NCBI GenBank assembly: GCA_039028615.1
Contig: JBCCHT010000009.1
Coordinates: 160,001 to 224,000, forward strand
Length of the DNA: 64,000 nucleotides
Source of the DNA: Myxococcota bacterium
Lineage (GTDB): Bacteria > Myxococcota_A > Polyangia > Nannocystales > Nannocystaceae
Direction of reading: 5' to 3'
Below, piece by piece: positions 35,354 to 64,000 of the stretch (its first letter is position 1; each line of letters begins with the position of its first letter). Made by a program: the position numbers and the translations under genes. Under the pieces are notes generated by a model. The model saw only the letters and a program-made list of their open reading frames with translations, had not been told where the DNA came from and did no database searches.

Positions 35354-35358
35354 TGCTG

Positions 35359-35482: not shown

Positions 35483-35509
35483 TTGAAAGGCGTCGAGGAG
35501 CACGATCAG

Positions 35510-36424: not shown

Positions 36425-36430
36425 GCCCCC

Positions 36431-36733: not shown

Positions 36734-36736
36734 ACC

Positions 36737-42231: not shown

Positions 42232-42843
42232 ATGGCCGCATTTACTGCCGTACGCGCCGTCAGTGACTCCATCGTGGGGTTTCTGAACGCACGCCACCAG
42301 ACGGAGGGCATGCCCGGCGAGGAGGGCGTGCGCTTCGCCGAGCGCTATCCCGCCACGATTCGGTTGGTCTCCAGCGGTGAGCTGGCCGACGACAACGCGA
42401 CACAGTCGTTCGAGCCTGCGCTGCTGCTGTACTTGTATCGCATCGGAGTCAACGAACAGCTGCGCACTGCGAACCGACTCGGCGACCAACGGCGCGGACC
42501 GATGCATCTCGATCTGCACTACATGCTCAGCGTCTGGTCGTCGTCGGCCGACACCGAGCACACCCTGATGACCTGGGCACTCCGCACCATTCAGGACAAC
42601 CCGGTCCTCGACTCGTCGTTCCTGAGCCCGGAAGGTATGTGGGAGCGACACGATGCGATCCAGCTGACGCCCGAGGAACTCACCAACGAAGACCTCCTGC
42701 GGCTGTGGGACGGGTTGGTGCCCTCGTATCGCATGAGCTACACGTACGTCGCTCGCGTGGTGACCATCGATCCCGCGGACCCCGAGACCTACGGCAACGT
42801 CATCGTTCGCGACATCACGGTGCGCGACGAGGAGAGAGACTGA
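42232..42843 (+). CDS. DUF4255/Pvc16/Afp16-like eCIS cap (tail terminator) protein
   Basis: AVSDSIVGFL, LLYLYRIGVNEQLR, LDLHYMLSVW, LQDNP-like IQDNPVL, LLRLWDGL..SYRMSYTYVARVVTID. Confidence 0.85.
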   Translation: MAAFTAVRAVSDSIVGFLNARHQTEGMPGEEGVRFAERYPATIRLVSSGELADDNATQSFEPALLLYLYRIGVNEQLRTANRLGDQRRGPMHLDLHYMLSVWSSSADTEHTLMTWALRTIQDNPVLDSSFLSPEGMWERHDAIQLTPEELTNEDLLRLWDGLVPSYRMSYTYVARVVTIDPADPETYGNVIVRDITVRDEERD

Positions 42844-43677
42844 ATGCCCGCGGTGATCGAAATAGCCGATCGCGCGCTCGCGGGGATTCGTTTCGAGGAT
42901 GCCGCGACGCGGACCCCCGTCAGCGAGCCCTTGCACGTCAGCGCGCAGGGACTGTCGCTCTATCGGAATCATCGACACATCTACGTCGTACGCGAGGCGG
43001 CGGGGCTGGAGGCCCATGTTCATGCCGTGGGGGCCGCCCCCGCCCTTCCCGTGCCCGGCTTGCTGCCCTTCGAGGTCGAGGTACGCGACCCAACCGGCCT
43101 GTACCTCCCTCGTCGCTTCACCCTGGACCTTCCCCGGGTCGACCACGCGGACGACGACGACGCCGCGCATCGCCTGGTGAACGTGACGCTCTATCGCTCG
43201 CCGCTGGCCCCGAGCTCTCTGCATTGGGCGTTGGTGCGGGTGCGCCTGGAAGACGCGGCCGGAAACCCGGTGCCGGGGCTGGTGCGGGTGGTGTTCGAGC
43301 CCGCGGCGCCCGACGAGCCAGAAGTGCTGGGCATGGGGATGAGCGTGGTCGCCGATCCGCTCGCTGCGGAACTCGCCCGGCGTGCTCCCCCCGGCGGGCG
43401 CTGGGTGCACTTCGATGCGCGTCAGCACGGGGAGGTCTGTGTCCCCGTGGTCGGTCTATCGAGCACGGTGTGGAGCGATGGCTCCGGGACCGACCCGGAC
43501 ACGGTGACACTCGATGCGGTTCCCGTGGTGCTCGAGGTCATTCCGATGGCGACGGCCGGGGGCCTCCCCAATCCCGATCTCAGCGTCGATGCCGTCGCGG
43601 ACGACGACAATCGACACGATCTTCAACTACGCGTGGGCCAAGAGTTCGTCGTCGGCCCTCTCGAAGTAACCCTTTGA
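42844..43677 (+). CDS. eCIS-associated hypothetical protein (possible cap adaptor)
   Basis: Abuts the DUF4255 gene (TGAATG); GIRFEDAAT, VRDPTGLYLPRRF, beta-rich sequence. Confidence 0.7.
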   Translation: MPAVIEIADRALAGIRFEDAATRTPVSEPLHVSAQGLSLYRNHRHIYVVREAAGLEAHVHAVGAAPALPVPGLLPFEVEVRDPTGLYLPRRFTLDLPRVDHADDDDAAHRLVNVTLYRSPLAPSSLHWALVRVRLEDAAGNPVPGLVRVVFEPAAPDEPEVLGMGMSVVADPLAAELARRAPPGGRWVHFDARQHGEVCVPVVGLSSTVWSDGSGTDPDTVTLDAVPVVLEVIPMATAGGLPNPDLSVDAVADDDNRHDLQLRVGQEFVVGPLEVTL

Positions 43678-43719
43678 TGCGACCCGTTTTCGTTCCGTAA
43701 CGGAAGAGGAAGAACACCG

Positions 43720-46161
43720 ATGCCCGAATACCTGGCGCCAGCCGTATACGTCGAAGAGACCAGTTTTCGGTCCAAGCCGCTCGAAGGGGTGAGTACGAGC
43801 ACGACTGCATTCGTCGGCCTCACCCGCCGTGGGCCCGTGACCACCGAGGTCGAGAACCTGTCCGATGAGGAGCGTGAACTCATCACGCCCGAGTTGGTGA
43901 CCAGCGTCCCCGACTTCGAGCGCCTGTATGGAGGGACGACTCCGCTCCAGCATGTCGGCGCAGACGAGCGCACCAACTACCTGGCACAGGCGGTGCGGGG
44001 CTTCTTTGCCAACGGCGGCCGTCGGCTCTACGTCGCGCGGGTGTTTCGACGCTCTGTGGGCACCCATGGGCGTGCCGCGAGTCGGTTCATCGTGGGGGCC
44101 GACGGGGACCCGGTTCGGGCGCGATTCGAGGCACGAACTCCCGGAGCGGCCGGCAACGGCCGGATCACCGTCACGCAGCTGACCGCGCCGGCGACCCCCA
44201 ACTCTCTGAACAACGCGCTCGAGGGGACGATGATCCGCACGGGCGCGCAAGACCCCCGCACGCCCAGCACGGGCCAAGGAGGTGTGCCCGACTTCCGGGT
44301 GGGCGCAGGGGCGGAGTTCGCTCTCGACGTCGATGGCAACCCGTTCTCGATCACGTTCGAAGGGCGTCGCGCGCAGGTCTCTACTCCCGCGGGGTTGCCC
44401 GAGCCGGTGGTGATCGCGGCGGGGGAGGCCGACCTCGAAGTCACCGTCAACGGCCTCACGCAGACCGTCTCGTTGCCCGTGGGGAACATCCCGCGCACGG
44501 AGCTGGCGCTGCGACTCAACGAAGCGCTGCAAGGCGGGGCGTTCGCGACCCTGACCGCCGGCGACGAGCTGGTGATCGGTAGCGAGATCGAAGGGGCGGA
44601 CTCGCGGGTGGCGGTGGCTGCCAATCCTTCCTTCGGGTTCCCAGCCGATGCTGCCGATGATGCGAGCGTCGACAGCAACGTCGCGAACCTCAACGCGGTC
44701 ACGGCCAACGAGATCAACGGATTACTCGCCGCCGCGGCCGCGCCGGTCGATGTCTCTCTAGATCCGGCCACGCTGCGGCTGGTGCTCACGACGCAATCGG
44801 TCGGCGCGGGCTCGCTCATCACGGTGGTGGACCCGGGGGCAGGCAACTCGGCCCATGCTGCCCTCGGTTTCACGCTCGGCGCCCAGACTCCGGGGCAAGA
44901 CGGGCAAGTGGTGCAGTACTACGTCAAGACCGGGTCGGCGTGGCTGGATGCGGGTGATAACCCCGGGGTCTTCGATCCCATGCCGGACGGTGGGGTCGAG
45001 TTCGTCTCGATCAACGTGGAGGCTCGAGACGCCGATGGCTTCCGGCAGAACTTCGAGGATCTGGCCCTATCTCCCGCTCACCCGAGCTACATCGGTGCCG
45101 TGATCGCGCCGATGCCCGCGCGACGACGGAGCCAGCTCGAGAACCTGGTCGCGCTGGTGGTCGAGGGCAACGTGACGCCGTTCCAGCTGCGAGAGGGGCT
45201 CCTCGGCGCGGCGGGGGTCGGTGGGGCCAATCCAGAGCAACGCGTGGCCGTCGCGCTGCCCATGACGGGCGGCAACGACGGTGACGAACCCTCGGCCGAG
45301 GAGTTCCGAGAGGCACTGAACGCCCTCGATGCCCTCGAGGGGGTCTCGATCGTTGCGGCTCCGGGCTCCAGCGCCAACCCGGCCCATGCGGCGATTCGCA
45401 ACCACGTCATCACCCACGTCGAGCAGCGCCGCGCCTACAAGATCGCCGTGCTCGATCCTCCCGAGGGGCAAACCCTCGGTGAAGTGCGGGGCGTTCGGGC
45501 GTCCTTCGATAGTCGCTACGCCGCGCTCTACTACCCGTGGCTCGTGGTACCCAACCCGGACTCCGCCCCGGGGAATCGCTCGCGTCCGGCCGAGATTCGC
45601 GTGCCGCCGTCGGGTCATATCTGTGGGGTCTATGCGCGGTCCGACGCCGAGCGAGGAGTGCACAAGGCTCCCGCCAACGAGGTCCTTCGCGGGGTCACGC
45701 GCTTCGAGACCAACATCAACATGCGTCAGCAAGAGGCGCTGAACCCCGAAGGCATCAACGCGCTGCGGTCTTTCCCCGGACGCGGCAACCGGATCTGGGG
45801 GGCTCGGCTCGCGTCTTCCGACCCCGAACTCAAGTACGTCAACGTGCGGCGCTACCTCAACTACATCGCCGCGACGCTCGACCGAGGCACGCAGTGGGTC
45901 GTGTTCGAGCCTAACGGTGAGCTGCTGTGGGCTCGCGTACGCTCGACGGTGAGAGACTTTCTGTACAACGAGTGGGTCGGGGGCGCGCTGCTGGGGAGCA
46001 CCCAGGACGAGGCCTTCTCGGCGCGGTGTGATCGCTCGATCATGACGCAGAACGACTTGGACAACGGTCGGCTCGTCTGCGAGGTCGGGATGGCGATCGT
46101 CAAGCCGGCGGAATTCGTAATTTTCCGAATTGGCCAGAAAACGGCCAACGCGAACGGATGA
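43720..46161 (+). CDS. contractile tail sheath protein 1 (with large insertion)
   Basis: MPEYLAPAVYVEE, GVSTSTTAFVG, AVRGFFANGG, YAALYYPW, PPSGHICGVYAR, GVHKAPAN, LNPEGINALR, IWGAR, YVNVRR, WVVFEPN, KPAEFVIFRI. Confidence 0.96.
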   Translation: MPEYLAPAVYVEETSFRSKPLEGVSTSTTAFVGLTRRGPVTTEVENLSDEERELITPELVTSVPDFERLYGGTTPLQHVGADERTNYLAQAVRGFFANGGRRLYVARVFRRSVGTHGRAASRFIVGADGDPVRARFEARTPGAAGNGRITVTQLTAPATPNSLNNALEGTMIRTGAQDPRTPSTGQGGVPDFRVGAGAEFALDVDGNPFSITFEGRRAQVSTPAGLPEPVVIAAGEADLEVTVNGLTQTVSLPVGNIPRTELALRLNEALQGGAFATLTAGDELVIGSEIEGADSRVAVAANPSFGFPADAADDASVDSNVANLNAVTANEINGLLAAAAAPVDVSLDPATLRLVLTTQSVGAGSLITVVDPGAGNSAHAALGFTLGAQTPGQDGQVVQYYVKTGSAWLDAGDNPGVFDPMPDGGVEFVSINVEARDADGFRQNFEDLALSPAHPSYIGAVIAPMPARRRSQLENLVALVVEGNVTPFQLREGLLGAAGVGGANPEQRVAVALPMTGGNDGDEPSAEEFREALNALDALEGVSIVAAPGSSANPAHAAIRNHVITHVEQRRAYKIAVLDPPEGQTLGEVRGVRASFDSRYAALYYPWLVVPNPDSAPGNRSRPAEIRVPPSGHICGVYARSDAERGVHKAPANEVLRGVTRFETNINMRQQEALNPEGINALRSFPGRGNRIWGARLASSDPELKYVNVRRYLNYIAATLDRGTQWVVFEPNGELLWARVRSTVRDFLYNEWVGGALLGSTQDEAFSARCDRSIMTQNDLDNGRLVCEVGMAIVKPAEFVIFRIGQKTANANG

Positions 46162-46169
46162 GGTGAATC

Positions 46170-46643
46170 ATGAAGCGCACATCGCCCTACGGAAACTACA
46201 ACTTCACCGTCGACCTGAAGAGCGAGGGCGTCGACATCAGCAGTGCGTTCGGAGGGTTTTCGGACGTGTCGGGCCTGGGGACGGAGCTCACCGTCGCCGA
46301 GTACCGCAACGGTAACGACGACGAGATGCACGTGCGGAAGATTCCCGGCTTGCACTCGACGCCCGACGTGACCTGCAAACGCGGCGTACTCAACTCGAAG
46401 GATCTGTGGGAGTGGATCGAGAACACGCGGCTGCAGAGCGTCGGGCAGCAACGCAACGTCGTCATCACCATGAACGACGAAGCGGGCAAGGCGGTTCAGT
46501 CGTGGACTTTGTTCAACTGCATCCCGCTCAAGTACACGGGGCCGACCTTTGCCGGCAAAGGTGGTGGTGACGTGGCGATGGAGGAGCTGGTGTTGTCCTG
46601 CGAGGGGATTCGCCTCGACGGAGTAGGGCCGACCCGGAACTAG
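46170..46643 (+). CDS. tail tube protein (T4 gp19-like)
   Basis: PYGNYNFTV, GGFSDVSGL, EYRNGN, KIPGL, VTCKRG, LWEW, PLKYTGP, VAMEELVL. Confidence 0.95.
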   Translation: MKRTSPYGNYNFTVDLKSEGVDISSAFGGFSDVSGLGTELTVAEYRNGNDDEMHVRKIPGLHSTPDVTCKRGVLNSKDLWEWIENTRLQSVGQQRNVVITMNDEAGKAVQSWTLFNCIPLKYTGPTFAGKGGGDVAMEELVLSCEGIRLDGVGPTRN

Positions 46644-46652
46644 CGAACTACG

Positions 46653-48224
46653 ATGCTACGCGGACTCGAATTCGAGACCTGGACCGCGCCGGTCGATCGC
46701 GCGCGGAACCGAGTGGATGTGGCGTGTTTCGTCGGGCTCGCCCGACGAAGCGAACGCGCTCTGCCTCCCTTGGTCCTCGCGTGGTTGGCTCGCGAGGGAT
46801 GGGTCGATGCCCCCGGCCAGCCGAAGTCCGAGGACGTTCGGTTCGGCGATACGTGGGCCCTCGATGACTCGCCACACCTGCCGATCCCCATCGACGATTG
46901 GTCCGCGTTCAAGCAGCTGTTCAGGGGGCGGTCCACTGCGGCCGATGGTGCGTCGGAGGTCGACTACCTGGCCGCCGCCGTTCGTTCGTTCTTCGTCCAG
47001 GGCGGGCGTCGCTGCTACGTGGTCGCGGTCGGGGCTCCGATGGCGTGGGATACCGAGCGTGTGCAGCGGCTGGAGGCTCTGCCTTCGATCCTGCCGCAGC
47101 TGTCGGGCAACGTCTCTGCGATCTCGGCCACCGAGCGGAGGGACTGGCGCGGCGTCGGCGTGCTGCACGGGGTGGAAGAAGCGTCGTGGTTGGCCTTGCC
47201 GGACCTCCCGTTCCTGGCCGCGGCCGACATCGTCGAACTCGAGCCCTTCGAGCCCGAGGAGCAGCCCTTCGATGCATTCGAGGAGTGCAGCGAACACCTG
47301 CCCGAGGTGCCTGAAACGGTGCGGTCCCGGGTCGCCGCTCCGCGCTGCGATTCCGAAGAGTACCGAGAGTGGGCGACGTGGATCGCCACCGCACGGCGCT
47401 TCCTCCAGTCGTTTCGACGCGACATGCAGCTGGTGGCGGCGGTTCCTCTGCCGCAACGGGGCTCCTGGGCAGCGCGAGATCTGCTCGGGGCCCTGGCCGA
47501 GTGGCGGATCTGGGGAGGCTCGGTGGTGGAGCCCGAGCACGCGTTCGCCAGTCGCTTCGTGCAGCTGGTCTACCCATGGCTGAGATGGAGCGGTTCGGCC
47601 GGGCTGCCCGAGGACATCGAGCCTCCCGACGGCACGTTCCTCGGCGTCTTGGCCCGAGCCACGCTCCAGCAGGGGGCGTATCGCAGCGCCGTCGGGCAGC
47701 CCATCCGAGAGCTGCGATCGGTCGTGCCGCCGCTTTCTCGCGCGCAGCAAGAGCAAGAAGGCCCCGATGGACGGGTGTTGCTGGAACGCATCTCGTTGTT
47801 GGGACCCTCGGTCGAGGGGCCCACGCTTCTTTCGGATGTCACCAGCGCCGAGGAGGAGGTCTGGCGAACGGCCAACATCGTGCGACTGCATGCCGTGTGG
47901 ATCCGTGCCCTGCGGCAGGCGGGGGAGACGATGGTGTTCGAGCCTTCGTCCGAGACGGTGTGGGCGGCGGTTCGTGATCGAGTGGACCAGGTCGGCCGTA
48001 TTCTGTTTCGAGACGGAGCATTGCGAGGGCGAAGCGCGGACGAGTCGTTCTCGGTGCGTTGCGATCGCAACACGATGTCGCAGGCCGACATCGATGCTGG
48101 TCGGCTGGTGGCCGAGGTCGGCTACCTTCCCGCGGCCCCGGTCGAGCGGATCTTCATCGCACTCGCGCTCTCCGAGGACCAGCGGGTCGACGTCGTTCGA
48201 GAACTCGCGGAGGGGCAATCATGA
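46653..48224 (+). CDS. contractile tail sheath protein 2 (divergent)
   Basis: DVACFVGLARR, AVRSFFVQGG, LALPDL, QLVYPWL, PPDG, MVFEPS, GALRG, FSVRCD, DAGRLVAEV, PAAPVERI. Confidence 0.88.
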   Translation: MLRGLEFETWTAPVDRARNRVDVACFVGLARRSERALPPLVLAWLAREGWVDAPGQPKSEDVRFGDTWALDDSPHLPIPIDDWSAFKQLFRGRSTAADGASEVDYLAAAVRSFFVQGGRRCYVVAVGAPMAWDTERVQRLEALPSILPQLSGNVSAISATERRDWRGVGVLHGVEEASWLALPDLPFLAAADIVELEPFEPEEQPFDAFEECSEHLPEVPETVRSRVAAPRCDSEEYREWATWIATARRFLQSFRRDMQLVAAVPLPQRGSWAARDLLGALAEWRIWGGSVVEPEHAFASRFVQLVYPWLRWSGSAGLPEDIEPPDGTFLGVLARATLQQGAYRSAVGQPIRELRSVVPPLSRAQQEQEGPDGRVLLERISLLGPSVEGPTLLSDVTSAEEEVWRTANIVRLHAVWIRALRQAGETMVFEPSSETVWAAVRDRVDQVGRILFRDGALRGRSADESFSVRCDRNTMSQADIDAGRLVAEVGYLPAAPVERIFIALALSEDQRVDVVRELAEGQS

Positions 48225-48745
48225 CGGGCTTCGTGGCCGAGGCGATGTCGCCGTTTCCCGCCTTTCGGTTCCAGGTGGACTTCCGCGAGCATCGACTCAC
48301 TCGCGGCGAACAGCCCGGGGACCTCGTACGCCTATGTCGGGGGTCGTTTTCCGAGTGCACCGGGCTCGAGGCGACCATGGAACCCAAGGTGATCAAGGAA
48401 GGCGGGCGCAACTATGGCGCGGCCCAGCGCGTGGGTGCAGTCACCTTCGGTAGCGTCGTGCTCAAGCGGGGCATGACCTCCAATGAAGATCTGTGGCGAT
48501 GGTTCAAGCTGGTCGCCAGAGGGGGCTACGCCTATCGGCTGACGGCGGACATCACCGTGCTCGGACCTTCGACGAGCGGTGGTGAGCCCGTCGCTCGTTG
48601 GGTCTGGCGCCTGCGGCACTGCTTGCCGACCAAGTTCAAGGCGCCGGACCTCGATGCCAAGGGCGACCAGGTCGCGATCGAGGAACTCCAGCTCGCCCAC
48701 GAAGGGCTCGACTTGTTGCAGGCACCGAGGGGAGGCTCGACGTGA
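48221..48745 (+). CDS. tail tube protein 2 (gp19-like, Afp5-type)
   Basis: PFPAFRFQV, FSECTGLE, KEGGRN, VVLKRGM, LWRWF, LPTKFKAPDLDA, VAIEELQLAHEGL; ATGA overlap. Confidence 0.93.
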   Translation: MTGFVAEAMSPFPAFRFQVDFREHRLTRGEQPGDLVRLCRGSFSECTGLEATMEPKVIKEGGRNYGAAQRVGAVTFGSVVLKRGMTSNEDLWRWFKLVARGGYAYRLTADITVLGPSTSGGEPVARWVWRLRHCLPTKFKAPDLDAKGDQVAIEELQLAHEGLDLLQAPRGGST

Positions 48746-50085
48746 CACAACAAGGGCGCGAAGACCCGAGTGAGCGCATCACCCGGGCCAAGTTTCGGAT
48801 CGTGCAAGGGCCGGGGCGAGGGCAGACGATCGACGTCAGCTTCAACCCCGAGAGCCTGGAATACACCGTCACCAACAACATCCAACAGCGCGGCAACTCG
48901 GACTCAAACAAGCAGTACGTCAGCAAGTCCTCGGGCAAGCTGTCGATGGACCTGGTGTTCGATACGACGGACACCGGGACCGACGTCCGTACGCATACCG
49001 AGCAGATGCAGAAGCTGATGCGGCCCGGCGAGGAAGGCCGCCGCAAGGTTGCCAGCATCGTCGAGTTTCGCTGGGGCGTTTACAAGATCAAGGGGGTCCT
49101 CGAGAACTACAAGGAGACCCTCGACTTCTTCTCGCCGACCGGCGTGCCCCTGCGTGCGAGCGTCAGCGTCACGATCTCACAGCAAGACGGGCTCTTCGAG
49201 ACTACCGATCGCGGAAGCTCGGGGCTTCCCAACGACTCGCTCGAGTTGTCGGTCACTCCGGGCCAGTCGCCGACGGGTGACCCTCAGGAGGACCGCAAGG
49301 TCAACAACGCCAGCGGGCAGGAGAAGCCGCGGTTCCCCGAGCGAGAGACGGTGGCGGTCCCACGAGAGCCGGAGCTGCAGCCGCCCTCCAGCTTCGCCCC
49401 TTCCGGCCCCGCGGGCATCGAGCTCGGCGCGGGTCTCGATGTCGATGTCGATCTGAGTCTCGAGGCGCAGCTGGATGTTGGCCTGGGCCTGGATCTGGAA
49501 GTCGGGCTCGATGTCGGGCTCGGATTGGATGTCGGGCTCGATGTGAGCCTCGGTCTCGACGCCAGCCTCGGATTGGACCTGGGCCTCGACATCGGTCTCG
49601 AGCTGCTCACGGACGGTGGAACCGGAGTAGCCTCAGGTGGGCGCCCGGGGCCTGTCTCGGGCAGAAGTGGCTCCCCTCGACCGGGAGCGTCGAGCGGTCG
49701 GGCAGCGGGCGCTCGCTCCCCCCGGGGTAGGCCCGGGTCTACTGCGGCTGACGCTGGTCCGCCGTCGGTCTTCGGCCCCCGATCCAGCCAACCATCGGGT
49801 CGGGTCGAGGGTCCGGAGTTCGGTGGGCGAAGCTCGGCTGGGGTGCCCGCGATCCGAGGTGCGTTCGCAGGCCTTCGCACCGACAATCGCCCTCGCCCCC
49901 GCCGACCATTTCGACCGGTCGAGGTGCAGGCGATCGCCGCCGAACGAACCCCGCGGGCCGACCCCACGTCCCGCTTCGAGGTCGGTGGCCGTGCGATCGG
50001 CTCCGGCAACGCGGGCATGGCTGCGGACGTAGGGGCCAAGGCCACGCTGGCGAGCCGGATTCGTTTCGATGAGGAGGAACTGTGA
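48742..50085 (+). CDS. CIS tube initiator (Afp7/Pvc7-like) with degenerate LysM and low-complexity tail
   Basis: VSFNPESL, LSMDLVFDT, FRWG, LDFFSPTGVPLRASVSVTI; GTG start after GGAGG overlapping the tube stop. Confidence 0.85.
   Translation: MTQQGREDPSERITRAKFRIVQGPGRGQTIDVSFNPESLEYTVTNNIQQRGNSDSNKQYVSKSSGKLSMDLVFDTTDTGTDVRTHTEQMQKLMRPGEEGRRKVASIVEFRWGVYKIKGVLENYKETLDFFSPTGVPLRASVSVTISQQDGLFETTDRGSSGLPNDSLELSVTPGQSPTGDPQEDRKVNNASGQEKPRFPERETVAVPREPELQPPSSFAPSGPAGIELGAGLDVDVDLSLEAQLDVGLGLDLEVGLDVGLGLDVGLDVSLGLDASLGLDLGLDIGLELLTDGGTGVASGGRPGPVSGRSGSPRPGASSGRAAGARSPRGRPGSTAADAGPPSVFGPRSSQPSGRVEGPEFGGRSSAGVPAIRGAFAGLRTDNRPRPRRPFRPVEVQAIAAERTPRADPTSRFEVGGRAIGSGNAGMAADVGAKATLASRIRFDEEEL
49414..49605 (+). 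repeat. coding tandem repeat (G/S-L-D/E-V/L)n
   Basis: GIELGAGLDVDVDLSLEAQLDVGLGLDLEVGLDVGLGLDVGLDVSLGLDASLGLDLGLDIGLEL; DNA units such as gatgtcgggctc recur. Confidence 0.85.
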
Positions 50086-50255
50086 TGGATGTCGATATCG
50101 GTGAAGTGCAAGCACAAGTCGAGGCCCCTTCGGCCGAGCCCTCCGCGAGCTCGAGCCCGTCGTCTCGCGGCAAAGGGCTCACCGAGCTCGCCCACGACCA
50201 AGAACTCGCCGAGCGCCGAGCACAGCGGCTTCGCGATCGGCTACGGGCCGACTGA
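50085..50255 (+). CDS. 56-aa eCIS small protein (Afp6/Pvc6-like candidate); not in ORF track
   Basis: Own translation MDVDIGEVQAQVEAPSAEPSASSSPSSRGKGLTELAHDQELAERRAQRLRDRLRAD; GAGGAGG RBS; TGATG coupling; ends 12 bp before the hub gene. Confidence 0.75.
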   Translation: MDVDIGEVQAQVEAPSAEPSASSSPSSRGKGLTELAHDQELAERRAQRLRDRLRAD

Positions 50256-50267
50256 GAGGTTGACCGA

Positions 50268-51365: not shown

Positions 51366-52042
51366 AGACCACGCAGCCCACCTCCGCTTCCCATCACCAC
51401 TTGGCCGAAGTCGTCTCGGTCGGCGACGTGTCGTCCAAGGGGAAGATTCGCGTGCGCTTGCTGACCCACGACGGCTCCGCCACGCAGAACGCTCCGATCG
51501 ATGCACGGCTGTGCGTGCCCTTTGCGGGAGGGGATCGAGGCGCATTCATGGTGCCCGACGTGGGCGACGAGGTCTTGGTGGCGTTCGTCGGAGGAGACCC
51601 GCGGCAGGCGGTGGTCGTCGGTGGGATGTGGAATGGGCAGAACACTCCCGGCGAGGACATTCAGGGAGATCGGGTCGATCGTTGGAGCTTCATCGGCAAA
51701 AAAGGCACTCGCATCGCGATCGTGGAAGAAGGCGGTGGGGCTCGCATCGAGCTACAGGCTCGCTCCGGCCGGAGTTCGAAGGCTTCGTGCGTCATCGATC
51801 GCAACGGCTCCATTCGGCTCTACGCGGGAGGCACGACCCTGGTCCTCGACGGCGCTGGGATGCGGCTCGAGACCTCGGGCGCCTGTGACCTGCAGTCTAC
51901 GGCCATGACGGTGACGGCGGCGACCATGACCGTCGATACCGCATTCACCAGCTTCTCCGGCTTCGTCGATGTCAGCGGCCCGGTGCAGTCGCCCGCCATC
52001 TTGGGCCAGAGCTACACACCCGGAGCGGGCAACGTATGGTAG
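51362..52042 (+). CDS. spike protein (gpV/gp5 OB-fold with short beta-helix)
   Basis: GKIRVRL, ARLCVPFAGGDRGAFMVPDVGDEVLVAF, AVVVGGMWNG; ends SYTPGAGNVW; ATGA overlap. Confidence 0.9.
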   Translation: MKTTQPTSASHHHLAEVVSVGDVSSKGKIRVRLLTHDGSATQNAPIDARLCVPFAGGDRGAFMVPDVGDEVLVAFVGGDPRQAVVVGGMWNGQNTPGEDIQGDRVDRWSFIGKKGTRIAIVEEGGGARIELQARSGRSSKASCVIDRNGSIRLYAGGTTLVLDGAGMRLETSGACDLQSTAMTVTAATMTVDTAFTSFSGFVDVSGPVQSPAILGQSYTPGAGNVW

Positions 52043-53565: not shown

Positions 53566-53572
53566 ACGCATC

Positions 53573-53962: not shown

Positions 53963-53965
53963 CCA

Positions 53966-56200: not shown

Positions 56201-56201
56201 G

Positions 56202-58607
56202 GTGGATGCGAACGGGCAGCGCTTCTGGTCGTTGGCGGGCGAGCAGGCGTGGGTGCGACAGGGGGCTCCGCCTCCGGTCCACGACAGCGAGCGCCGGACC
56301 TTTCGACTGGGCAGCCATCGCGAGCTTGGTTTTACCGAGTCGCCCGACGAAGCCGAGGAGCGTCGGGGGCGGCCGCGTATGACCCACGACCGGCATGGCA
56401 CCCATGCGTTCGTCGACCCCGTTACCAACGAGATCCATGGGGCGGGAGCGCTGTCCGGGAGCGTCGTGCTCCACGCGCCGGACGATCCGGTGATCGACGT
56501 CGCCGTCGGCTACGACGAAGTCCTCTATTTCATCGAGGAGGCCGAGGTCTGGCTCGTGGACTTGCGGGGTCGCTGGGACGCCGTCGCCGTGTCGCTGCCC
56601 GACTTTGCACCGAGCCGCTTGGCGGCTCGCCCCGAGGGCGGCGTCTGGGTCCTCGACCGTAATGACCAGCAGCTCGCTCGGGTGACCGGTGTTCCCCTGC
56701 CTCGCGAAGGAGCCCGAGAGCGCTCGGACCTGCTCTTCGATCCAAAAGAGGAGAACCCCCGTCCTCCTCGGATGGTCCGGGTCGATCTCGGGTCGACAGA
56801 TGCGGAAGAAGCCATCGACATTGCGACGAACTCGCGGGGGCGTACGGTGTTGTTGTCGTGGGAAGCGGATGCGTCGTCCGTGCGCTTTGTCGCCTCGGAC
56901 GGTTCGTTGGGGCCACGCCAATTGCTCGACGGCATCGAGCGGCCATTTTCCATCGGGTTCGTGGATGTCGACACCTTGGCCGTGCTGGTGGCGGCGTTGC
57001 ATACCGAAGCCGAGGGCGGGCCGCTCGTCCCGGGCGGGACGCAAGTCGTGACCTACGACGGAGGCCCGAGCGACGAGGCGGGGTCGCGACTCCCTCTGGG
57101 AGGCACCTATCCCTTGCTCGGCCACGATGGTGGTCCGTTCGCCCGTGGCCTCGACGAGCCCGTACGCTACGGCGTGACGGGCAGTGAGCCGGTCGCTCCC
57201 GCGCCGCGGCGCTTGATTCAGATCGCCGCCCCGCGACACGCGATGACGGGCAACCTGGTGACCCCACCAGGGGCTCCGCTCGATGGGGGCCGCGAGGGGT
57301 TCGAGTGGCATCGCGCCTACGTCGAGGCTCACTTTCCTCCCGGCTGTGGCCTGCGGCTGTACGTGCGGGCAAGCGACGAGCCGGTCGAACCCGCCGAGGA
57401 GCACGAGCATGTGTTCGGTGACGTCGAGCCTGCTCCTGGCCTGCCCCACGGCATCTGGTCGACGATGGCCTCGGAACTGCCCTTTCACGATGGGGTCTTG
57501 CCTTGTCCGCTCGAGCCGCACCGAGCGGGCTTGTTCACGGTGCTGCTGCAACGAACGGGGCGAGCGGTCACGGCCATTCGCGGTCGGTACCTATGGGTGA
57601 GGGTGGAACTCGTCGGAGATGGGCGGCTCGGACCCGAGCTGGCGGCGGTCCGGATCTACGGCTCCCGATTCTCCCACGTGGAGAACTATCTGCCGCGCAT
57701 CTACCACGACAACCGCTTCGGAACCGATGCCGACGCGCCTGGGGCCGCGTCCCCGGCCGACTTTCTCGAGCGCTTCGTCGGCAACTTCGAGGGGGTGCTG
57801 ACCACCCTCGAAGATCGAATCGCCAACGCTCATCTGCTCACCGACCCGCAGACGTGCCCCGAGGACGCCCTGGGGTGGCTGAGTTCCTGGGTCGGTCTGG
57901 TCTTCGACGCCGCGTACCCGGCCGAGCGACGACGAGTGGCTATCGAGCACGCCATGGCGCTGCATCGCTGGAGGGGGACTGCCCGTGGTCTCCGCATGGC
58001 GATCGACTTGCTCACCGGCGGTGCGGTCGAGCGCGGGAAGGTCGTCATCTTGGAGGGGTGGAGGTTGAGACGGACCTTCGCGACGATCCTCGGAGCCGAC
58101 CTCGCCGATGAGGACGACCCGCTATTGGGGGGCGTCGTTCAGAGCGGAAACTCGGTCGTCGGAGACAGCCTCATCCTGGGTGACGACTTCCGCCGGGAGT
58201 TCGTCGCGCTGTTTCGCGAGAACCTGCCCGAGCGGCCGAGTGGTTCGACCCTCGACGAGTGGATTCAGTGGATGGTCGAGCGCTACATCGATCCACATGT
58301 GGTCGACGCGTTCTTCGATCGACTCGCCCACCGCCTGACGATCCTGGTCCACGCCGAGGACACCGAGCTGCTGACGTCGTTGCGAAAAATCGTCGAGCTG
58401 GAGACTCCGGCTCACCTCGAGACGGAAGTCGTCTCGGCCCCCTATCCCTTTCTCGTGGGGATGGCGTCGTTGGTGGGCGTCGACACGTTCCTGCGAGGCC
58501 CCGAGGAGCCGCCCGGCATCGTCGTCGGCGAGTCCCGAATCGGTGGCACCGGATTCCTCTCGAGGCCGGCGGCCCTCGACTCTCGCCTGGAAGGAGGCAC
58601 CACATGA
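56202..58607 (+). CDS. tail protein I/gp7-like wedge protein with N-terminal beta-propeller-like region
   Basis: C-terminal YLPRIY, DFLERFVGNFE, DPQTCPEDALGWLSSWVG, HRWRGTARGL, ETPAH; N-terminal NHL-like PSRLAARPEGGVWVLD; GTG at 56202. Confidence 0.85.
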   Translation: MDANGQRFWSLAGEQAWVRQGAPPPVHDSERRTFRLGSHRELGFTESPDEAEERRGRPRMTHDRHGTHAFVDPVTNEIHGAGALSGSVVLHAPDDPVIDVAVGYDEVLYFIEEAEVWLVDLRGRWDAVAVSLPDFAPSRLAARPEGGVWVLDRNDQQLARVTGVPLPREGARERSDLLFDPKEENPRPPRMVRVDLGSTDAEEAIDIATNSRGRTVLLSWEADASSVRFVASDGSLGPRQLLDGIERPFSIGFVDVDTLAVLVAALHTEAEGGPLVPGGTQVVTYDGGPSDEAGSRLPLGGTYPLLGHDGGPFARGLDEPVRYGVTGSEPVAPAPRRLIQIAAPRHAMTGNLVTPPGAPLDGGREGFEWHRAYVEAHFPPGCGLRLYVRASDEPVEPAEEHEHVFGDVEPAPGLPHGIWSTMASELPFHDGVLPCPLEPHRAGLFTVLLQRTGRAVTAIRGRYLWVRVELVGDGRLGPELAAVRIYGSRFSHVENYLPRIYHDNRFGTDADAPGAASPADFLERFVGNFEGVLTTLEDRIANAHLLTDPQTCPEDALGWLSSWVGLVFDAAYPAERRRVAIEHAMALHRWRGTARGLRMAIDLLTGGAVERGKVVILEGWRLRRTFATILGADLADEDDPLLGGVVQSGNSVVGDSLILGDDFRREFVALFRENLPERPSGSTLDEWIQWMVERYIDPHVVDAFFDRLAHRLTILVHAEDTELLTSLRKIVELETPAHLETEVVSAPYPFLVGMASLVGVDTFLRGPEEPPGIVVGESRIGGTGFLSRPAALDSRLEGGTT

Positions 58608-59512
58608 GCACACGCAAGGACCGCATCGCCGATCCCGAGTACGACCGACGCGATCGCGTCAACTATGCGGAAGGGGTCTTGCTCGACGCCCGCGACTTCG
58701 AAGACGAGCAGCTTTACCACCGGGCGACGTCCGCCCGGGCGTTGCAGTACCTGTTCGGTACCGGGACGGTCGCCGGTTTGGAGGTGACCTACAACCCGGC
58801 GACGGGGGAGATCGAGGTGGCACCGGGCCTTGCGATCGACCCTCTGGGTCGCTTGATCGAGCTGCCTCGCACCTGGTGCCTGGTGGTCGAGGACTGGTTC
58901 GACGCGCAACGAGACGAGGACCTGGCGCGATCGTGGATCGACGAAGGCGCTGGACCGGTCTTGGTCGCGGATGTCTTCATTCGATTCGTCGCGTGCGGTC
59001 GCGGAAAAACGCCGTCGTTTGCCACGGGGCCCTTCGATGCGCTCGATGCCGTCACGCCCTCCCGCGTCCGCGATGGGTTCGAACTCGCGTTGGTGGTGCG
59101 CCCCGAGACGGAGCGACGCAGAGAAGATCTGGCGGCCGGAGCCGACCCTCGAGAGATTCCACTGCCGAGCACCGAGGCGGAAGCGGCGGCCTTGGTCGAC
59201 CTCCCGGGCGCCGCCTTCGTGACGCAGATGCGACAACGAATCCTGTCCGCGTGGCGGGAAGGAACTCAGCACTGGACCGACGATCGCCCCCCGGCCCTGG
59301 TCGAACACCTCGAGTGGCGCACGCTCGTCGACGAAGTCGATCCCACGGCGGTGGGCCAGGATCCGACGTCCGTGCTCCTCGCTCGAACCACCATCCCCGT
59401 GACGGCGCCGGCGGCAGGTGGACCTCCCGGGTTCGTGTCTGCGGCCTTTGCCCCCGCAAACTTCGTGCGCCGCTTCGTCTATTGCCCGGGAGTCCTGACC
59501 CGAATCCCGTAG
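58604..59512 (+). CDS. eCIS baseplate-distal hypothetical protein (fibre-attachment-like N-domain)
   Basis: RVNYAEGVLLDARDFEDEQLYHR, GTGTVAGLEV, VAPGLAIDPLGRLIEL; ATGA overlap, GGAGG RBS. Confidence 0.8.
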   Translation: MSTRKDRIADPEYDRRDRVNYAEGVLLDARDFEDEQLYHRATSARALQYLFGTGTVAGLEVTYNPATGEIEVAPGLAIDPLGRLIELPRTWCLVVEDWFDAQRDEDLARSWIDEGAGPVLVADVFIRFVACGRGKTPSFATGPFDALDAVTPSRVRDGFELALVVRPETERRREDLAAGADPREIPLPSTEAEAAALVDLPGAAFVTQMRQRILSAWREGTQHWTDDRPPALVEHLEWRTLVDEVDPTAVGQDPTSVLLARTTIPVTAPAAGGPPGFVSAAFAPANFVRRFVYCPGVLTRIP

Positions 59513-59525
59513 GGAGACGCGTGCT

Positions 59526-62084
59526 ATGGCCGTATTTGATCCCGTAAAGGGCCCAGATCGTGAACGGATCGATCGCGAGGAGCTCGACGATGCGACCGAC
59601 TTGCCCGCGATCCTCCGCGATCGCCGTCGTCGTCGCCCGCGTTACTTCGACCGGCGCTTCCTGACCGCCCGCGACCTCACTCGCGATCAGCAGTACGTCG
59701 CGCTTCGACAGGCCGACCTCGGGCAGATCGGGGGCTCGGGGGTACTCTCGGGGCTCGACGTTCACTCGGACGCTCGCGGAGCGCAGCTGTTCCTCGAGCC
59801 AGGGGTCGGGGTCGCGCGCTCGGGCGAGGTCGTGGCGGTTCGGGAGCGGGTTCGTGCCCGTGTTGCCCACTTGCCCATCACGCACTTTAGCGGCCGCGCC
59901 GTCGACTCGTTGAGCAATCGGAGACCGTGGCGCCGTCGGCATGGGCTGTTCGTCCTCGTGGCGAGGCCGGTCGAGTACGCTCGCGAACCCACGACCGCAT
60001 TCCCGACCGGAGTCTCGGGTGAGCGCAGCCTGGAAGATGGTGAGATCGCTGAAGCCACTTGGCTCACGCTGATGCCGGTGCCGAGCCTCGCACCGCGCGA
60101 GGTCCTACGGCGCGGACGTGCGCGGCTGGCTCGGGAGGTGTTCTTGGAGGGGTTCGACCTCTCCGAGGGGAGCGATGGCCTCGCGCTCGCGGTGGTGGGC
60201 CTCGTCGGCAATCGAATCAACTGGATCGACACCCACATGGTGCGTCGAGACGTCGGTGGCGACGGCCTGCTCGGGCTCGGCATCGAACGCCGCAAGAATC
60301 GGCTGGCCTTCCAGCGCCACTACGTCGACCGCATTCGAGATGTGGTGGCCGAGCGCGGAGATCGTGGCTTGGGCGAGAACATCGCGGCCGCCGACGAGTT
60401 CGACGTCTTGCCGCCCGTCGGCCCGCTACCTCGGGCGGCACTCCAGGCGGAAAACGGCGATCTGTTCCAGAGCTTCTTTCCCGCCTCCATCTACACCGAA
60501 GTCACGGTGGTCCCGGAGGACGAGCTGTCGAGTTTCGTCTCTGAGGGGCTGGTGCGTGCGCCCATCGATCTGACGGTGGAGCCCGAGACTCTCGAGGCGG
60601 TGCCGGTCCTGCTGATCGTTCCAGTTCCCCGGAAGGGCTTGCTCGATCGCATTCGTCGGTTGCAGAGCGGGGTGTTGCGGTCGTCGCTCTCTGCCGCCGG
60701 CCGACCCCTGGCACGAGTGCGGCCGTTCGACGGGCTGTCGGCCCTGAGACGCAAGCTGATGCCCGAAGTCGCAGATCCGAAGCCGTTGGACATGAAGGCG
60801 TGGCGGAGTGCGCTCGAGTCCGCCACCGAGCTGTGGTACATGCGCCGCCCTCAATTCGCGCCCGTGTCTGCCGTCGTGCCTCGGATCCCCGAAGGTAGCC
60901 TCGACAGCGAGCCCATCGAGATGCTCGATGGGCCGGCTCGCGATCACATCGAGGGAGCGGGCGAGGTCGAGCGGTTCAATAATCTGTTGTCGACAGTGGG
61001 AGAGGAGGTCATCGCCGCCCTCGGTGAGACTCTCGCAGACTCCGTGTTTGCGACACCGGTCTTCGTCACCGGGTTGCTCGCCGAGCTGGCCTACGTGGCT
61101 CGCCGCCCTCGCGCGACGGGGTTGCTCCCCGAGCCTCCCGATGCTCCGCGAGCTCCGTTCTTCGTCGAGTCTCCCCCGCTCGACCGAGTCGTGCTCCGGC
61201 CGATCGAACTCGGCGATGTCCAGCGCGTGACCTTGCGGTATCGGGCCCAGGGGGCCGTGGGCGGGATCGCGTTGCTCGGCGCGCTCGGTGACTTCGAACG
61301 GGCCGTGCTCGGCCAGAGCGTGGTGTTGCCGGAGATCGGCGCGTGGCTCAGTCAGCCTCTGGGAGGCTTCGTGACCGTCGGGGTCGTTCAGCAGATGCTA
61401 GCGAATGCCGACGTCGACGGCCTGCGCGGGCTGGCCGAAGGTATGGACCTGAGGATCGCTCGGCTGTTCGACGAATCGCGCTCTGCTCCTCGGCTGGCCA
61501 CCTTTGGTGCGGAGCCCCTGCTGCGTCTGGTCTGGGACGTCAGTGCGGCCAGCTTCCGGGAGAGCATCGACGATGCGCTCGCGGACCTGCCCTTGGGTGA
61601 GTCCGCGGTGTTCACCACGATCTTCCTGGTCAAGCTGATCGAGATCGGGTGGGGGCTGGATATCGACACCGCGGACGAGGGGCGGGCGTTCCTCGACGCG
61701 TTGGCGGCATGGGTGCCCGGGACCGCCTTCGCCGTGCCCGGCGTACCCACGCTGCACCCCAATGGCGAGGTCTTGGCAGATGTCTCCCATGTCAGTCGCG
61801 ACTTGCTCGTCGAAGGAGCCTTGAACACGGCACCGGAGACGGTGAGCCAAGCCAGCGAGCGGTTGGTCGACGTGGGTTTCCCCCGACCGGTGGTCCCGAC
61901 TTCCGAGGATGCCGAGGCGCTCCAGTTGCTGGCCTTGGCCGCGCCGGGGGTCACGTTCTTGAACGAGATCGCAACCGCGACCGATGCTGCGCTGGGCTCG
62001 TTCGCAACGCAGGCCGGTCAGGCAGTGACGCTGCGGCACATGCTGCTGATGCGCGTTGCCGTAGTCCAGCTGTCGAACTCGTGA
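59526..62084 (+). CDS. large eCIS-associated hypothetical protein, paralogue A
   Basis: RPRYFDRRFLTARDLTRDQQY, GSGVLSGLDV, LEPGVGV..SGEVV, LPPVGPLP, FFP, VPEDEL. Confidence 0.8.
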   Translation: MAVFDPVKGPDRERIDREELDDATDLPAILRDRRRRRPRYFDRRFLTARDLTRDQQYVALRQADLGQIGGSGVLSGLDVHSDARGAQLFLEPGVGVARSGEVVAVRERVRARVAHLPITHFSGRAVDSLSNRRPWRRRHGLFVLVARPVEYAREPTTAFPTGVSGERSLEDGEIAEATWLTLMPVPSLAPREVLRRGRARLAREVFLEGFDLSEGSDGLALAVVGLVGNRINWIDTHMVRRDVGGDGLLGLGIERRKNRLAFQRHYVDRIRDVVAERGDRGLGENIAAADEFDVLPPVGPLPRAALQAENGDLFQSFFPASIYTEVTVVPEDELSSFVSEGLVRAPIDLTVEPETLEAVPVLLIVPVPRKGLLDRIRRLQSGVLRSSLSAAGRPLARVRPFDGLSALRRKLMPEVADPKPLDMKAWRSALESATELWYMRRPQFAPVSAVVPRIPEGSLDSEPIEMLDGPARDHIEGAGEVERFNNLLSTVGEEVIAALGETLADSVFATPVFVTGLLAELAYVARRPRATGLLPEPPDAPRAPFFVESPPLDRVVLRPIELGDVQRVTLRYRAQGAVGGIALLGALGDFERAVLGQSVVLPEIGAWLSQPLGGFVTVGVVQQMLANADVDGLRGLAEGMDLRIARLFDESRSAPRLATFGAEPLLRLVWDVSAASFRESIDDALADLPLGESAVFTTIFLVKLIEIGWGLDIDTADEGRAFLDALAAWVPGTAFAVPGVPTLHPNGEVLADVSHVSRDLLVEGALNTAPETVSQASERLVDVGFPRPVVPTSEDAEALQLLALAAPGVTFLNEIATATDAALGSFATQAGQAVTLRHMLLMRVAVVQLSNS

Positions 62085-62094
62085 TGAGGAGAAG

Positions 62095-64000
62095 ATGATG
62101 GAAGACCTCGACAGCTTTGCTCCTCGACGCCGTTCGACCCGTCGGCGCCTGCCTCCCGACGACATTCGTCGCGCGGAACGGATTGGCGCGCTGGCCAACG
62201 ACGCCGAGCGAGTTCGGCCCCGCTATTTCGATGGTCGTCGTTTGAGTGCGACAGACCTGTCCGCCGACTTCGACTACTTCGATCGGCGGCAGCGTGACCT
62301 GGCCAGCACGGTCGACGGCGGCGTGGTCGAGGGGCTTGGGATCGAGTGGCCACCCCCTGGTGAAGGCGGCGGCCCACTGCGGCTGAGGGTGGGCTCGGGC
62401 CACGGTTTGACGCGCGCGGGTGAGCTGGTCCTGGTGCGCGAGGCCATCGTGCTGGACCTGGCCGACCTTCCCACCTCGTCCCAGCTCGACGCGGTCTTCG
62501 ATCTCGACGAACGACCTCGGCCCCCGGCGCGCACGCAGAGCGGAATCTTCGCGCTGACGCTTCGCCCGGTGGAGTTCCAGGCCAACCCGGTCGCACCCTA
62601 TCCCAAGAACATCACGGGCGAGCGCGTCCTCGAGGATGGCGAGGTCATCGAGGCTACGCTGTTCACGTTGGTCCCGCTCGCATCCGAGTCGGGTCTGGAT
62701 GCGGTCCGCGAGGGCAGAGCCGGCCTCGCCCGGCGAATCTTCGTCGAAGGGCTCGACCCGGCGCGTTCGATTCACGGCTTGCCGATTGCGGTGGTGGCCA
62801 TCGAACGAGGTCAGATTTCGTGGGTCGATGTACACCTGGCACGGCGTCGCGCGATGGCCGATCCCACCAGAGGGTTCGGGGCAGGGGCACGGCCGCGGTT
62901 GGAAGCGAGCCTGCAGCACTACGACGACGCGCTGAAGCGCATCATCGCGGAGCGCCTGGCCGTTCCACTCGGCCTGCGTTTCGGCGCGAGTGAGTATTTC
63001 GAGGTCTTGCCCCCGGCGGGGGTGCTGCCGGCCGCCGCGGTCGAGGTGCAGTTCGATCGCGTGTTCCAGTACTTCTTCCCGCCCGGGGTGGATGCCGAGA
63101 TCGCGCTGGTTCCCGAAGACGAGATTCCGGGCCTCATCGAGGAAGCCATCGACCTGGGGCCGATCGATCTCGCGGCGGGGGCGGCTTCGCTGGAGTCGAC
63201 ACCGGTATTGATCACCATTCCCGTCCCGCGGGAGGAGTTTCCCGAGTGGGTTCGCCAAACGGGCGGAGTGCCGCGCCGACCGGTCGCGCAGCGACTCGCG
63301 CGTTCGTTGGCCCATCGACGTCCAGTCGACGCGTTCCTTCGCCGCGCACTGCGGCGATCGGCGGCCGAGGGAGCTCCTGCGGTGCCGTTGCTCGAACCCT
63401 GGCAGAACGCGCTGGCCAACGCGGAGACGCTGTTGTTCGTGCGGCAGCGCCAGCGGGCCCAGACCTCGTTCGCTCAGGCACGCTATGGCCCCATCCCCGC
63501 GGAGCAACGGCCGTCGGGGACGATCGCGGAGCTGGTACGCAACCGCCTCGAGCTGGCCGGCGAGCTCGGGCGTTTCGATCGGCTCTTGGTCACCGCGGGC
63601 CCCGACGCGCTCGAACGCCTCGAGACGCTGCTCTCGAACGACGCATTCGAGCATCTTCTCTTCGTCAACGGGCTCGTCGCCGAGCTGTCGTACCGAGCAC
63701 GTCGCAAGCTCCTCGGGGCCGGCGAGAGCGTCGGTGATGGAAGCACCTTCCTCACGGTGGGGAGCGTTCCACCCGGAGCACCGCTGCCGCTCCGTGTTCG
63801 CCCGCTCCGGCCCGAAGATGTAGACGCGGTCGCAGATCGCTACGCGAACGTCGCCGTGCCGCAGGGATTGGTCGAATTGGCGACACGGCATAGCGCGCTC
63901 TTCGATGAGCTGGACGTTCGTATCGTGCTCGCGCAGACGTTGCGCGTCCCCGAGCTCGATCAGCAAGTCGCGAACGTTCGGGAGGCTGAGCGTGACGATC
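62095..64000 (+). CDS. large eCIS-associated hypothetical protein, paralogue B (partial; not in ORF track)
   Basis: Own translation after GAGGAG: MMEDLDSF...RPRYFDGRRLSATDL...RPVEFQANP...GERVLEDGEVIEATL...LPPAGVLP...FFPPG...VPEDEI; collinear with paralogue A and still in frame at the window end. Confidence 0.85.
   Translation, partial: MMEDLDSFAPRRRSTRRRLPPDDIRRAERIGALANDAERVRPRYFDGRRLSATDLSADFDYFDRRQRDLASTVDGGVVEGLGIEWPPPGEGGGPLRLRVGSGHGLTRAGELVLVREAIVLDLADLPTSSQLDAVFDLDERPRPPARTQSGIFALTLRPVEFQANPVAPYPKNITGERVLEDGEVIEATLFTLVPLASESGLDAVREGRAGLARRIFVEGLDPARSIHGLPIAVVAIERGQISWVDVHLARRRAMADPTRGFGAGARPRLEASLQHYDDALKRIIAERLAVPLGLRFGASEYFEVLPPAGVLPAAAVEVQFDRVFQYFFPPGVDAEIALVPEDEIPGLIEEAIDLGPIDLAAGAASLESTPVLITIPVPREEFPEWVRQTGGVPRRPVAQRLARSLAHRRPVDAFLRRALRRSAAEGAPAVPLLEPWQNALANAETLLFVRQRQRAQTSFAQARYGPIPAEQRPSGTIAELVRNRLELAGELGRFDRLLVTAGPDALERLETLLSNDAFEHLLFVNGLVAELSYRARRKLLGAGESVGDGSTFLTVGSVPPGAPLPLRVRPLRPEDVDAVADRYANVAVPQGLVELATRHSALFDELDVRIVLAQTLRVPELDQQVANVREAERDD

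Follow-up and report, generated by a model that had tools for sequence, protein, structure and literature searches.

A probable subtype IIb contractile injection locus in a probable myxobacterium, with a candidate spike-tip protein in the position of PAAR

Subtype IIb of the dbeCIS catalogue of extracellular contractile injection systems (eCISs) is defined in the text of Chen 2019 (PMC6899500) by a split afp8, the lack of afp10, the presence of afp6, a single afp11, divergent afp12 and afp13, and the lack of afp14. According to that text, IIb also carries subtype-specific genes to which no function was assigned (afpIIb1-3) and is alone in lacking PAAR, and the authors asked whether its uncharacterised genes compensate. 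Myxococcus xanthus DK1622 (locus A0213) and M. fulvus HW-1 are tabulated there as IIb, and Figure S4, whose font-coded text was taken out by hand, lists about 55 IIb loci, including other myxobacteria. Here we describe a contractile injection locus in a window of 64,000 nucleotides (contig C9:160001-224000) from a high-GC genome of 12.3 Mb that is 96.7% complete. The gene content of the locus fits subtype IIb, and its spike gene (g10) is directly followed by a gene (g11) whose product is predicted to bind the tip of the spike. We consider it likely that this is a lineage-II IIb system that delivers a DUF4157 toxin, that the producer protects itself with a DUF4303 protein, and that g11 replaces PAAR at the spike tip.

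The closest described systems share different parts of this plan. The Halogeometricum borinquense CIS (clade IIa, membrane-bound) provides the nearest solved sheath (9EZM) and, in the text of its report (PMC11566945), also has a split hub and spike, no tape measure, and DUF4157 toxins with downstream immunity; unlike the present locus, it contains PAAR and a pair of baseplate J genes, shows no homologues of the plug or crown, and is anchored by baseplate feet. The Streptomyces davawensis cargo Tme, as described in PMC11126660, resembles the cargo protein of this locus (g21) in its succession of DUF4157, helical region, hydrophobic segment and C-terminal nuclease, whereas the system that carries it has a PAAR-like Tip and an EndA-type nuclease and acts on the development of the producer. 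In the account of the Anabaena tCIS (PMC8894136), the crown protein Cis19/All3314 has an N-terminal anchor domain in common with g15-g18, and a conserved hydrophobic helix offers a precedent for membrane anchoring; however, that helix belongs to the tail-fibre protein Cis13 at the baseplate rim, and the system has one crown gene and a single-chain spike of 589 residues. The lineage I systems Afp, PVC, AlgoCIS and SalCIS follow the same plan of tube, sheath, cap, gp25 and ATPase, but their hub and spike are fused with a PAAR cap and their sheath similarity to g3 is much lower; Afp and AlgoCIS also differ in having a dedicated tape measure. An earlier reading of the window (hereafter the original prediction) saw differences from Afp and PVC, and no gene-for-gene twin was found among the characterised systems.

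The evidence for a distinct tip begins with the end of the spike. Solved eCIS spikes align only up to profile position 187-199 of 224, and thus the motif YTPGAGN(I/V)W, in which g10 ends, lies on an extension of about 25 residues. This motif closes 80 of 150 spike homologues when loosely defined and 64 of 150 when strictly defined. The g11 alignment retrieved 546 confirmed metagenomic loci; among the best 80 of them, a motif-ending spike stands directly upstream of g11 in every locus with enough upstream DNA (60/60), and gp25 directly after it in every locus with enough downstream DNA (71/71), which leaves no room for a PAAR gene. A DNA pattern for the tail motif matched in 5 of the 401 genomes of a phylum sample, each match lying just before g11. 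Independently, the g11 alignment found g11 in 6 of the same 401 genomes, the present one included, and the sixth genome has a variant spike tail. PAAR_motif gave no match in this genome, and no PAAR match was obtained inside the g11 locus of five related genomes.

The tail of the hydrophobic-tailed protein noted in the original prediction is conserved. A family search gave 88 sequences, g11 itself included; all 88 have a hydrophobic segment within the last 70 residues, and no other part of any of them passes the same hydrophobicity threshold. MXAN_4502 of M. xanthus DK1622 is an orthologue (33% identity over its length, E=1e-67), and a search from a g11 relative also returned proteins named from Archangium, Polyangium and Sorangium.

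Several side observations concern the same two proteins. Two full-length proteins of hub-spike size, P0381 (618 residues) and P0396 (578 residues), end in the spike-tail motif, so this tail may occur outside split-spike loci. Longer forms of g11 with similar ends are encoded in two related genomes (G207, 840 residues; G256, 780 residues), which indicates that the middle of the protein is variable, and in a third (G346) the tail is less typical. An apparent natural spike-g11 fusion (P0281) was rejected as a frameshift artefact with long out-of-frame stretches.

We modelled the complex from three copies of spike residues 95-226 and one copy of g11. The spike-g11 score was 0.68 (runs 0.61, 0.68 and 0.73), against 0.00 for the best of three controls; the score mark is reached by 116 of 157 solved complexes and by 2 of 215 mismatched pairs, counts that hold only roughly in this case. 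The runs agree in at least 95% of contacts, with a partner predicted local distance difference test score (pLDDT) of 70-74. The score supports g10-g11 binding but falls short of showing it, and it may owe something to memory of a similar complex, though a profile search found no solved relative of g11. The contacted spike residues (172-173, 180-181, 185-188, 192-195, 199-201, 205-207, 209-216 and 214-226) step through the three copies in turn, a pattern that we take to trace a single face of the triple beta-helix as far as the apex. The g11 side of the modelled interface comprises the most conserved patches and one face of the hydrophobic helix (472-483), with conserved interface patches at residues 64-70, 185-191 and 203-211; the mean frequency of the top residue is 0.74 for the 37 interface residues and 0.48 for the 472 others. 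Residues 484-505 do not appear in the confident contacts; they show a polar stripe (residues 484, 488 and 491), as might be expected of helices that bundle within a membrane.

The side-on position of g11 on the beta-helix would also suit a spike-mounted effector or adaptor, as in the side cargo of VgrG in type VI secretion systems (T6SSs), with the hydrophobic segment damaging the target membrane or helping g21 to cross it. The g11 monomer model (pLDDT 88) has a beta-sandwich core and weakly matches 9JG8_C, which is one chain of a cargo complex bound to VgrG (Z 7.2, root-mean-square deviation 3.4, 127 aligned residues). However, this Z lies within the background of the search: the best VIA match reached Z 7.5 and the matches were generic beta-sandwiches, and Foldseek gave no match at E<=0.001, so that the fold searches show neither a new fold nor a relative. 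Moreover, the place of g11 among the structural genes is fixed and its residues include near-invariant ones, unlike those of exchangeable effectors, and g11 is followed by gp25 and not by an immunity-like gene. We therefore regard an effector role as unlikely.

Somewhat less probable still is an ordinary eCIS of the released type, with g11 at the periphery as a subunit of the baseplate or cage, its tail buried in an oligomer, and with the point made by the spike extension and nothing else. In favour of this arrangement are the known phage spikes that do without PAAR and the conservation of the g11 tail in sequence beyond mere hydrophobicity, a feature expected of a protein-protein surface; the four crown- or fibre-like genes suggest binding to a target from outside. 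Against it stand the complex model and the finding that g11 and the spike tail are strictly coupled.

The genes of the locus are as follows (window coordinates; those after the window end are given as positions in locus L001 of the same contig).

42232..42843, + strand, g1: cap/tail terminator (Afp16, DUF4255); Pfam Pvc16_N E=1e-32
42844..43677, + strand, g2: conserved, mostly beta protein between cap and sheath; no family
43720..46161, + strand, g3: main sheath, 813 residues, large insertion; Pfam sheath domains
46170..46643, + strand, g4: tube; Phage_T4_gp19 E=1e-29
46653..48224, + strand, g5: second, divergent sheath; Phage_sheath_1C E=1e-5, 32% to g3 over 213 residues
48221..48745, + strand, g6: second tube; Phage_T4_gp19 E=2e-29
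48742..50085, + strand, g7: tube initiator (Afp7-like) with a long, low-complexity C-terminal half; CIS_tube E=3e-22
50085..50255, + strand, g8: 56-residue protein at the Afp6 (plug) position, by size and position
50268..51365, + strand, g9: hub (gp27-like half of Afp8); Phage_GPD E=5e-8, VgrG_rel E=5e-27
51362..52042, + strand, g10: spike (gp5-like half of Afp8, OB fold), C-terminal extension ending YTPGAGNVW; Phage_base_V E=2e-18
52036..53565, + strand, g11: predicted spike-tip binder with hydrophobic C-terminal segment, at the PAAR gene position
53573..53962, + strand, g12: gp25/Afp9; GPW_gp25 E=5e-21
53966..56200, + strand, g13: sole baseplate J/Afp11; TIGR02243 E=1e-71
56202..58607, + strand, g14: wedge, divergent Afp12; Tail_P2_I E=5e-12, CIS12_fam E=1.5e-31 (under its cut-off)
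58604..59512, + strand, g15: short, crown/fibre-anchor-like; CIS13_fam E=6e-10 (under its cut-off)
59526..62084, + strand, g16: crown/fibre-anchor-like; CIS13_fam E=2e-7, 32% to g17 over 837 residues
62095..64000, + strand, g17: paralogue of g16, 889 residues, cut by the window end and ending at L001:2764
L001:2772-6497, g18: crown-like, beyond the window
L001:6494-8275, g19: unassigned family, beyond the window
L001:8268-10310, g20: AAA+ ATPase, beyond the window; E=9e-25
L001:10310-15406, g21: DUF4157 nuclease-type cargo, 1698 residues, beyond the window
L001:15403-16032, g22: DUF4303 immunity-like, beyond the window; just above the DUF4303 cut-off
L001:15987-17102: pentapeptide-repeat gene directly after g22; start codon uncertain

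From 42232 to the window end, the + strand carries a co-oriented run of 17 ORFs, as called; the original prediction had the orientation right and counted 15, the 56-residue gene at 50085-50255 being among the 17. All frames are intact, and no gap between cluster genes in the window exceeds 42 bp. The overlaps described there as many ATGA and TGATG junctions come to 6 of 16 (three ATGA, one GTGA, one TGATG and one of 7 bp), and one further junction abuts. Family scans confirmed every component named at the outset, that is the cap, two sheaths, two tubes, initiator, hub, spike, gp25, baseplate J and wedge. With the Afp15-type ATPase, which sits 6 kb past the window end, all eight core eCIS components are present (Afp1/5, 2/3/4, 7, 8, 9, 11, 15 and 16); the ATPase and cargo genes, which had been placed outside the window, indeed lie directly downstream on the same contig as part of g18-g22.

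The cluster is a headless contractile injection system, neither a prophage nor a classical T6SS. Its tail genes are phage-related, as in a prophage remnant or T6SS, but its frames are intact and 27 family-scanned flanking ORFs gave housekeeping families or none, with capsid, terminase and TssJLM families all absent, as they are from the cluster; the scan left out one ORF of 811 residues about 2.3 kb downstream of the pentapeptide-repeat gene. No portal gene accompanies the locus, TerL_ATPase had no match across the 96.7% complete genome, the classical T6SS set (TssJ/L/M, TssA, ClpV) was not found with the locus, and the TssM of the genome lies on another contig (C34). At this level of gene content the prophage or T6SS explanation is refuted and has a negligible probability, and the lack of head and packaging genes stated in the original prediction holds on reading downstream. 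What does not carry over from its eCIS label is the word extracellular, which is not established: the nearest solved sheath belongs to a membrane-bound lineage-II system.

The smaller components can be placed with varying firmness. By its position, g2 may be a cap adaptor; its homologues occur in 23 of 80 metagenomic loci, its model (pLDDT 83) gave only weak Ig/pilin-like fold matches (TM about 0.2), and no sequence match was found in the PDB. The size and position of g8 fit a putative Afp6 counterpart, and look-alike ORFs are present in 31 of 38 informative related loci. g7 has no Pfam LysM match; we also observed that it contains a Leu/Asp/Val/Gly-rich stretch of short repeats and, at its C-terminus, a short motif shared by most relatives.

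Gene content fits lineage II and, within it, dbeCIS subtype IIb, a kind known from sequence since 2019 of which the locus would be a member. The five features of IIb that can be assessed firmly are all present: Afp8 is split into g9 and g10, Afp10/PAAR is missing, Afp11 is single, Afp12 and Afp13 are divergent (their CIS12_fam and CIS13_fam matches fall under the cut-offs), and family scans found no Afp14 tape measure among the cluster genes. In addition, there is the small gene at the Afp6 position, and there are further conserved uncharacterised genes, of which g2, g11 and g19 are candidates for afpIIb1-3, going by the text of the definition and not its figure; the g11 orthologue MXAN_4502 belongs to an organism tabulated as IIb. 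IIa and IIc have two Afp11 genes and a PAAR gene, and Ia, Ib and IId have Afp8 as one ORF, neither of which is found here. The split hub and spike, the lack of PAAR, the single baseplate J and the lack of a tape measure are thus catalogued traits and not new ones: the original prediction saw the first two correctly, yet they are published hallmarks of IIb and do not make the cluster atypical. Relative to IIb, defined in PMC6899500 by sequence and with no role given there to the subtype-specific genes, this locus adds four crown-like paralogues and a long low-complexity initiator. A quick Afp11 tree of 20 rows (a wrong-frame row and four others left out, one added) grouped it in one clade with the other loci that have g11 (support 82; own subclade 100), apart from the IIa, IIc and IId references.

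The appendage and cargo genes complete the locus. g15-g18 have one N-terminal domain in common, and a 12-row profile of it matches the tCIS crown All3314/Cis19 (E=6e-6); anchor domains of this type are catalogued as eBAP3-5 in the text of PMC12923769. By sequence, g15-g18 are crown or fibre-like proteins and no new class. The three extra distal proteins of the original prediction are three of four paralogues, the fourth lying past the window; the g16/g17 doubling is seen in 1 of 22 loci that reach g18. g21 combines DUF4157 (E=2e-11) with a long helical region, a segment of strong hydrophobicity and an Ntox1-like part (E=1e-10), and its His-rich tip is nearest to AHH nuclease clusters (score 0.93); like Tme, g21 may be related to the tape measure. 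The immunity-like gene g22 overlaps g21, and DUF4157 toxin-immunity pairs are described for H. borinquense (PMC11566945, in the text available). Both such pairs and nuclease cargo with DUF4157 are thus on record for systems that do not belong to lineage I. Because of this toxin-immunity pair, antagonism against bacteria is the most likely use of the system, by analogy. The predation or developmental role first proposed found no support in any result on the locus, and the report of a highly expressed eCIS tube gene in marine Myxococcota, with predation as a speculation, has no direct bearing on it in the parts of PMC11937823 that concern eCISs.

A nuclease cargo of this type could instead work inside the producer, in regulated death, DNA release or development, as is reported for Streptomyces systems. 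The CIS of S. davawensis (PMC11126660, as far as its text goes) affects sporulation and loads Tme, a cargo that joins DUF4157, a transmembrane segment and a nuclease in a like architecture; the second-nearest solved sheath to g3 (8BKY, E=6e-89, after 9EZM, E=1e-91) is that of S. coelicolor, and neither the cluster nor its neighbourhood yielded a family of lysis genes. Against such self-directed action, the toxin gene is overlapped by an immunity-like gene, and the cluster is patchy (0/60 relatives) and mostly lower than its flanks in GC content at third codon positions (about 0.78-0.86 versus 0.83-0.94), unlike a core developmental module. We regard it as improbable.

Delivery into other bacteria with g11 at the tip, the reading that we prefer, would proceed as follows. 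Assembly would follow the eCIS plan of hub, spike, plug-position protein, initiator, tubes, sheaths and cap, on a baseplate of gp25, J and wedge with four crown-like appendage proteins, and the ATPase would presumably load the cargo, a step for which the AAA+ ATPase is required in AlgoCIS according to the available text of bioRxiv 10.64898/2026.05.27.728243. The spike tip would lack PAAR and end in the extension with YTPGAGN(I/V)W; g11 would run along a single face of the triple beta-helix at its final rungs, and the hydrophobic helix at the C-terminus of g11 would pack its first half against the apex. Since the spike trimer has three like faces, three g11 copies may form a collar, the remaining hydrophobic residues projecting beyond the apex and entering a membrane. 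The DUF4157 nuclease-type toxin would then pass into other bacteria, while the adjacent DUF4303 gene would protect the producer.

A number of points weigh against this mechanism. The 80 metagenomic loci are close relatives, with duplicates included. Four Tox-PAAR-like genes on other contigs of the genome could act in trans. The binding comes from a model with one g11 copy, from which we infer the 3:3 stoichiometry and the membrane contact; the model drew on the same alignments from which the interface conservation was scored, so the two are not independent, and the monomer model resolves the tail of g11 poorly (block pLDDT 46-86, residues 421-509). In the complex model, some of the hydrophobic helix lies buried against the spike, so the helix need not be transmembrane. 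The toxin tip of g21 has no Pfam match of its own, and we infer, from the organism, that MXAN_4502 lies in locus A0213. Finally, the sole IIb stand-in of the Afp11 tree, a Cereibacter plasmid that we take to be IIb from its accession range and size, falls outside the g11 clade (supports 82-88); its locus carries a PAAR-like gene, and g11 found no match there. For this reason IIb probably holds two tip types, a PAAR-like branch and a g11 branch.

As for the membrane reached by the g11 helix, the inner membrane of the producer, with the helix as a tether for a T6SS-like mode, comes close to an even chance; the membrane of the target cell after release is a fair contender though short of that, and contact with neither is rather unlikely. 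SalCIS is also membrane-associated, but as a clade Ib system with PAAR in the text of PMC13266070. A more far-reaching and tentative possibility is a third mode of finishing a spike, by a conserved tail and three g11 copies and not by a PAAR cap or a metal-bound apex, in which the helices tether the loaded needle tip-first in the inner membrane of the producer; we hold this combination doubtful.

The cluster is scattered among bacteria. With the single protein as query, g11 was not found in 60 relatives. In one related genome (G153), each gene from cap to ATPase has its counterpart except g8, which gave no match, and there is a single g16/17 copy; the same core gene order is seen on an annotated plasmid of Rhodococcus opacus. 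The g11 homologues with a named source belong to a cyanobacterium, Blastocatellia and Thauera, and Atlas clusters (76 to 176 members) occur most often in Pseudomonadota among entries of known phylum; a contig search with g11 returned one weak locus, with no match to cluster genes. Horizontal spread of the cluster is the simple reading of this distribution. The host itself is supported as the probable myxobacterium of the original prediction by 65 MYXO-CTERM matches in the genome, with none in 14 control genomes, and its large size and high GC fit such a host.

Other features were observed around these loci. A co-oriented gene of 1104 residues (38877-42191) ends 40 bp upstream of the cap, has an Arg-rich end and a weak VWA-like match only, and has no match in the related loci checked; it may or may not be an operon member. 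Farther upstream (33815-37612), a sigma-54 activator is divergent from two alpha/beta hydrolase genes in a region of lower GC than that upstream of it, with no link to the cluster shown. Contig C15 of the same genome carries a second, different eCIS locus (about 145000-175000; L033, L034) with a DUF4157 gene at its end, and its baseplate J groups with a IIc reference (support 100). Two more DUF4157 genes away from both loci (C23:59746 and C2:187074) are candidate orphan cargo, and a lone sheath-like match stands among unrelated genes on contig C19 (about 147600-149100; L035), with no tube or baseplate match nearby. In another genome, the sheath, hub, g11 and baseplate J of a related locus (G108 C35; L018, L019) seem to be split by frameshifts, through decay or assembly error.

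Taken together, the locus as such adds a further example to a subtype already catalogued, whereas the coupled module of spike tail and g11 and its predicted position at the tip appear to be new. The module is not described in the available text of three further publications (PMC13277306, PMC10553843 and PMC8651086). A literature search whose coverage excluded most subscription papers listed neither structural nor functional work on any IIb system, and no mention of MXAN_4502; g11 might be mentioned in the supplementary files of the PAAR, tail-fibre and eCIStem papers, which lay outside its scope. We propose g11 as a candidate answer to the question raised by Chen 2019 about the PAAR-less IIb systems, one that points to residues on both partners and is directly testable because the orthologue MXAN_4502 occurs in the tractable model M. 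xanthus DK1622. If the tip-first tether were true, M. xanthus and members of several phyla would possess a membrane-anchored T6SS-like system without TssJLM. If our reading is right, g11 and the spike tail would represent a new tip architecture, and possibly a new mode of anchoring, for contractile injection systems.

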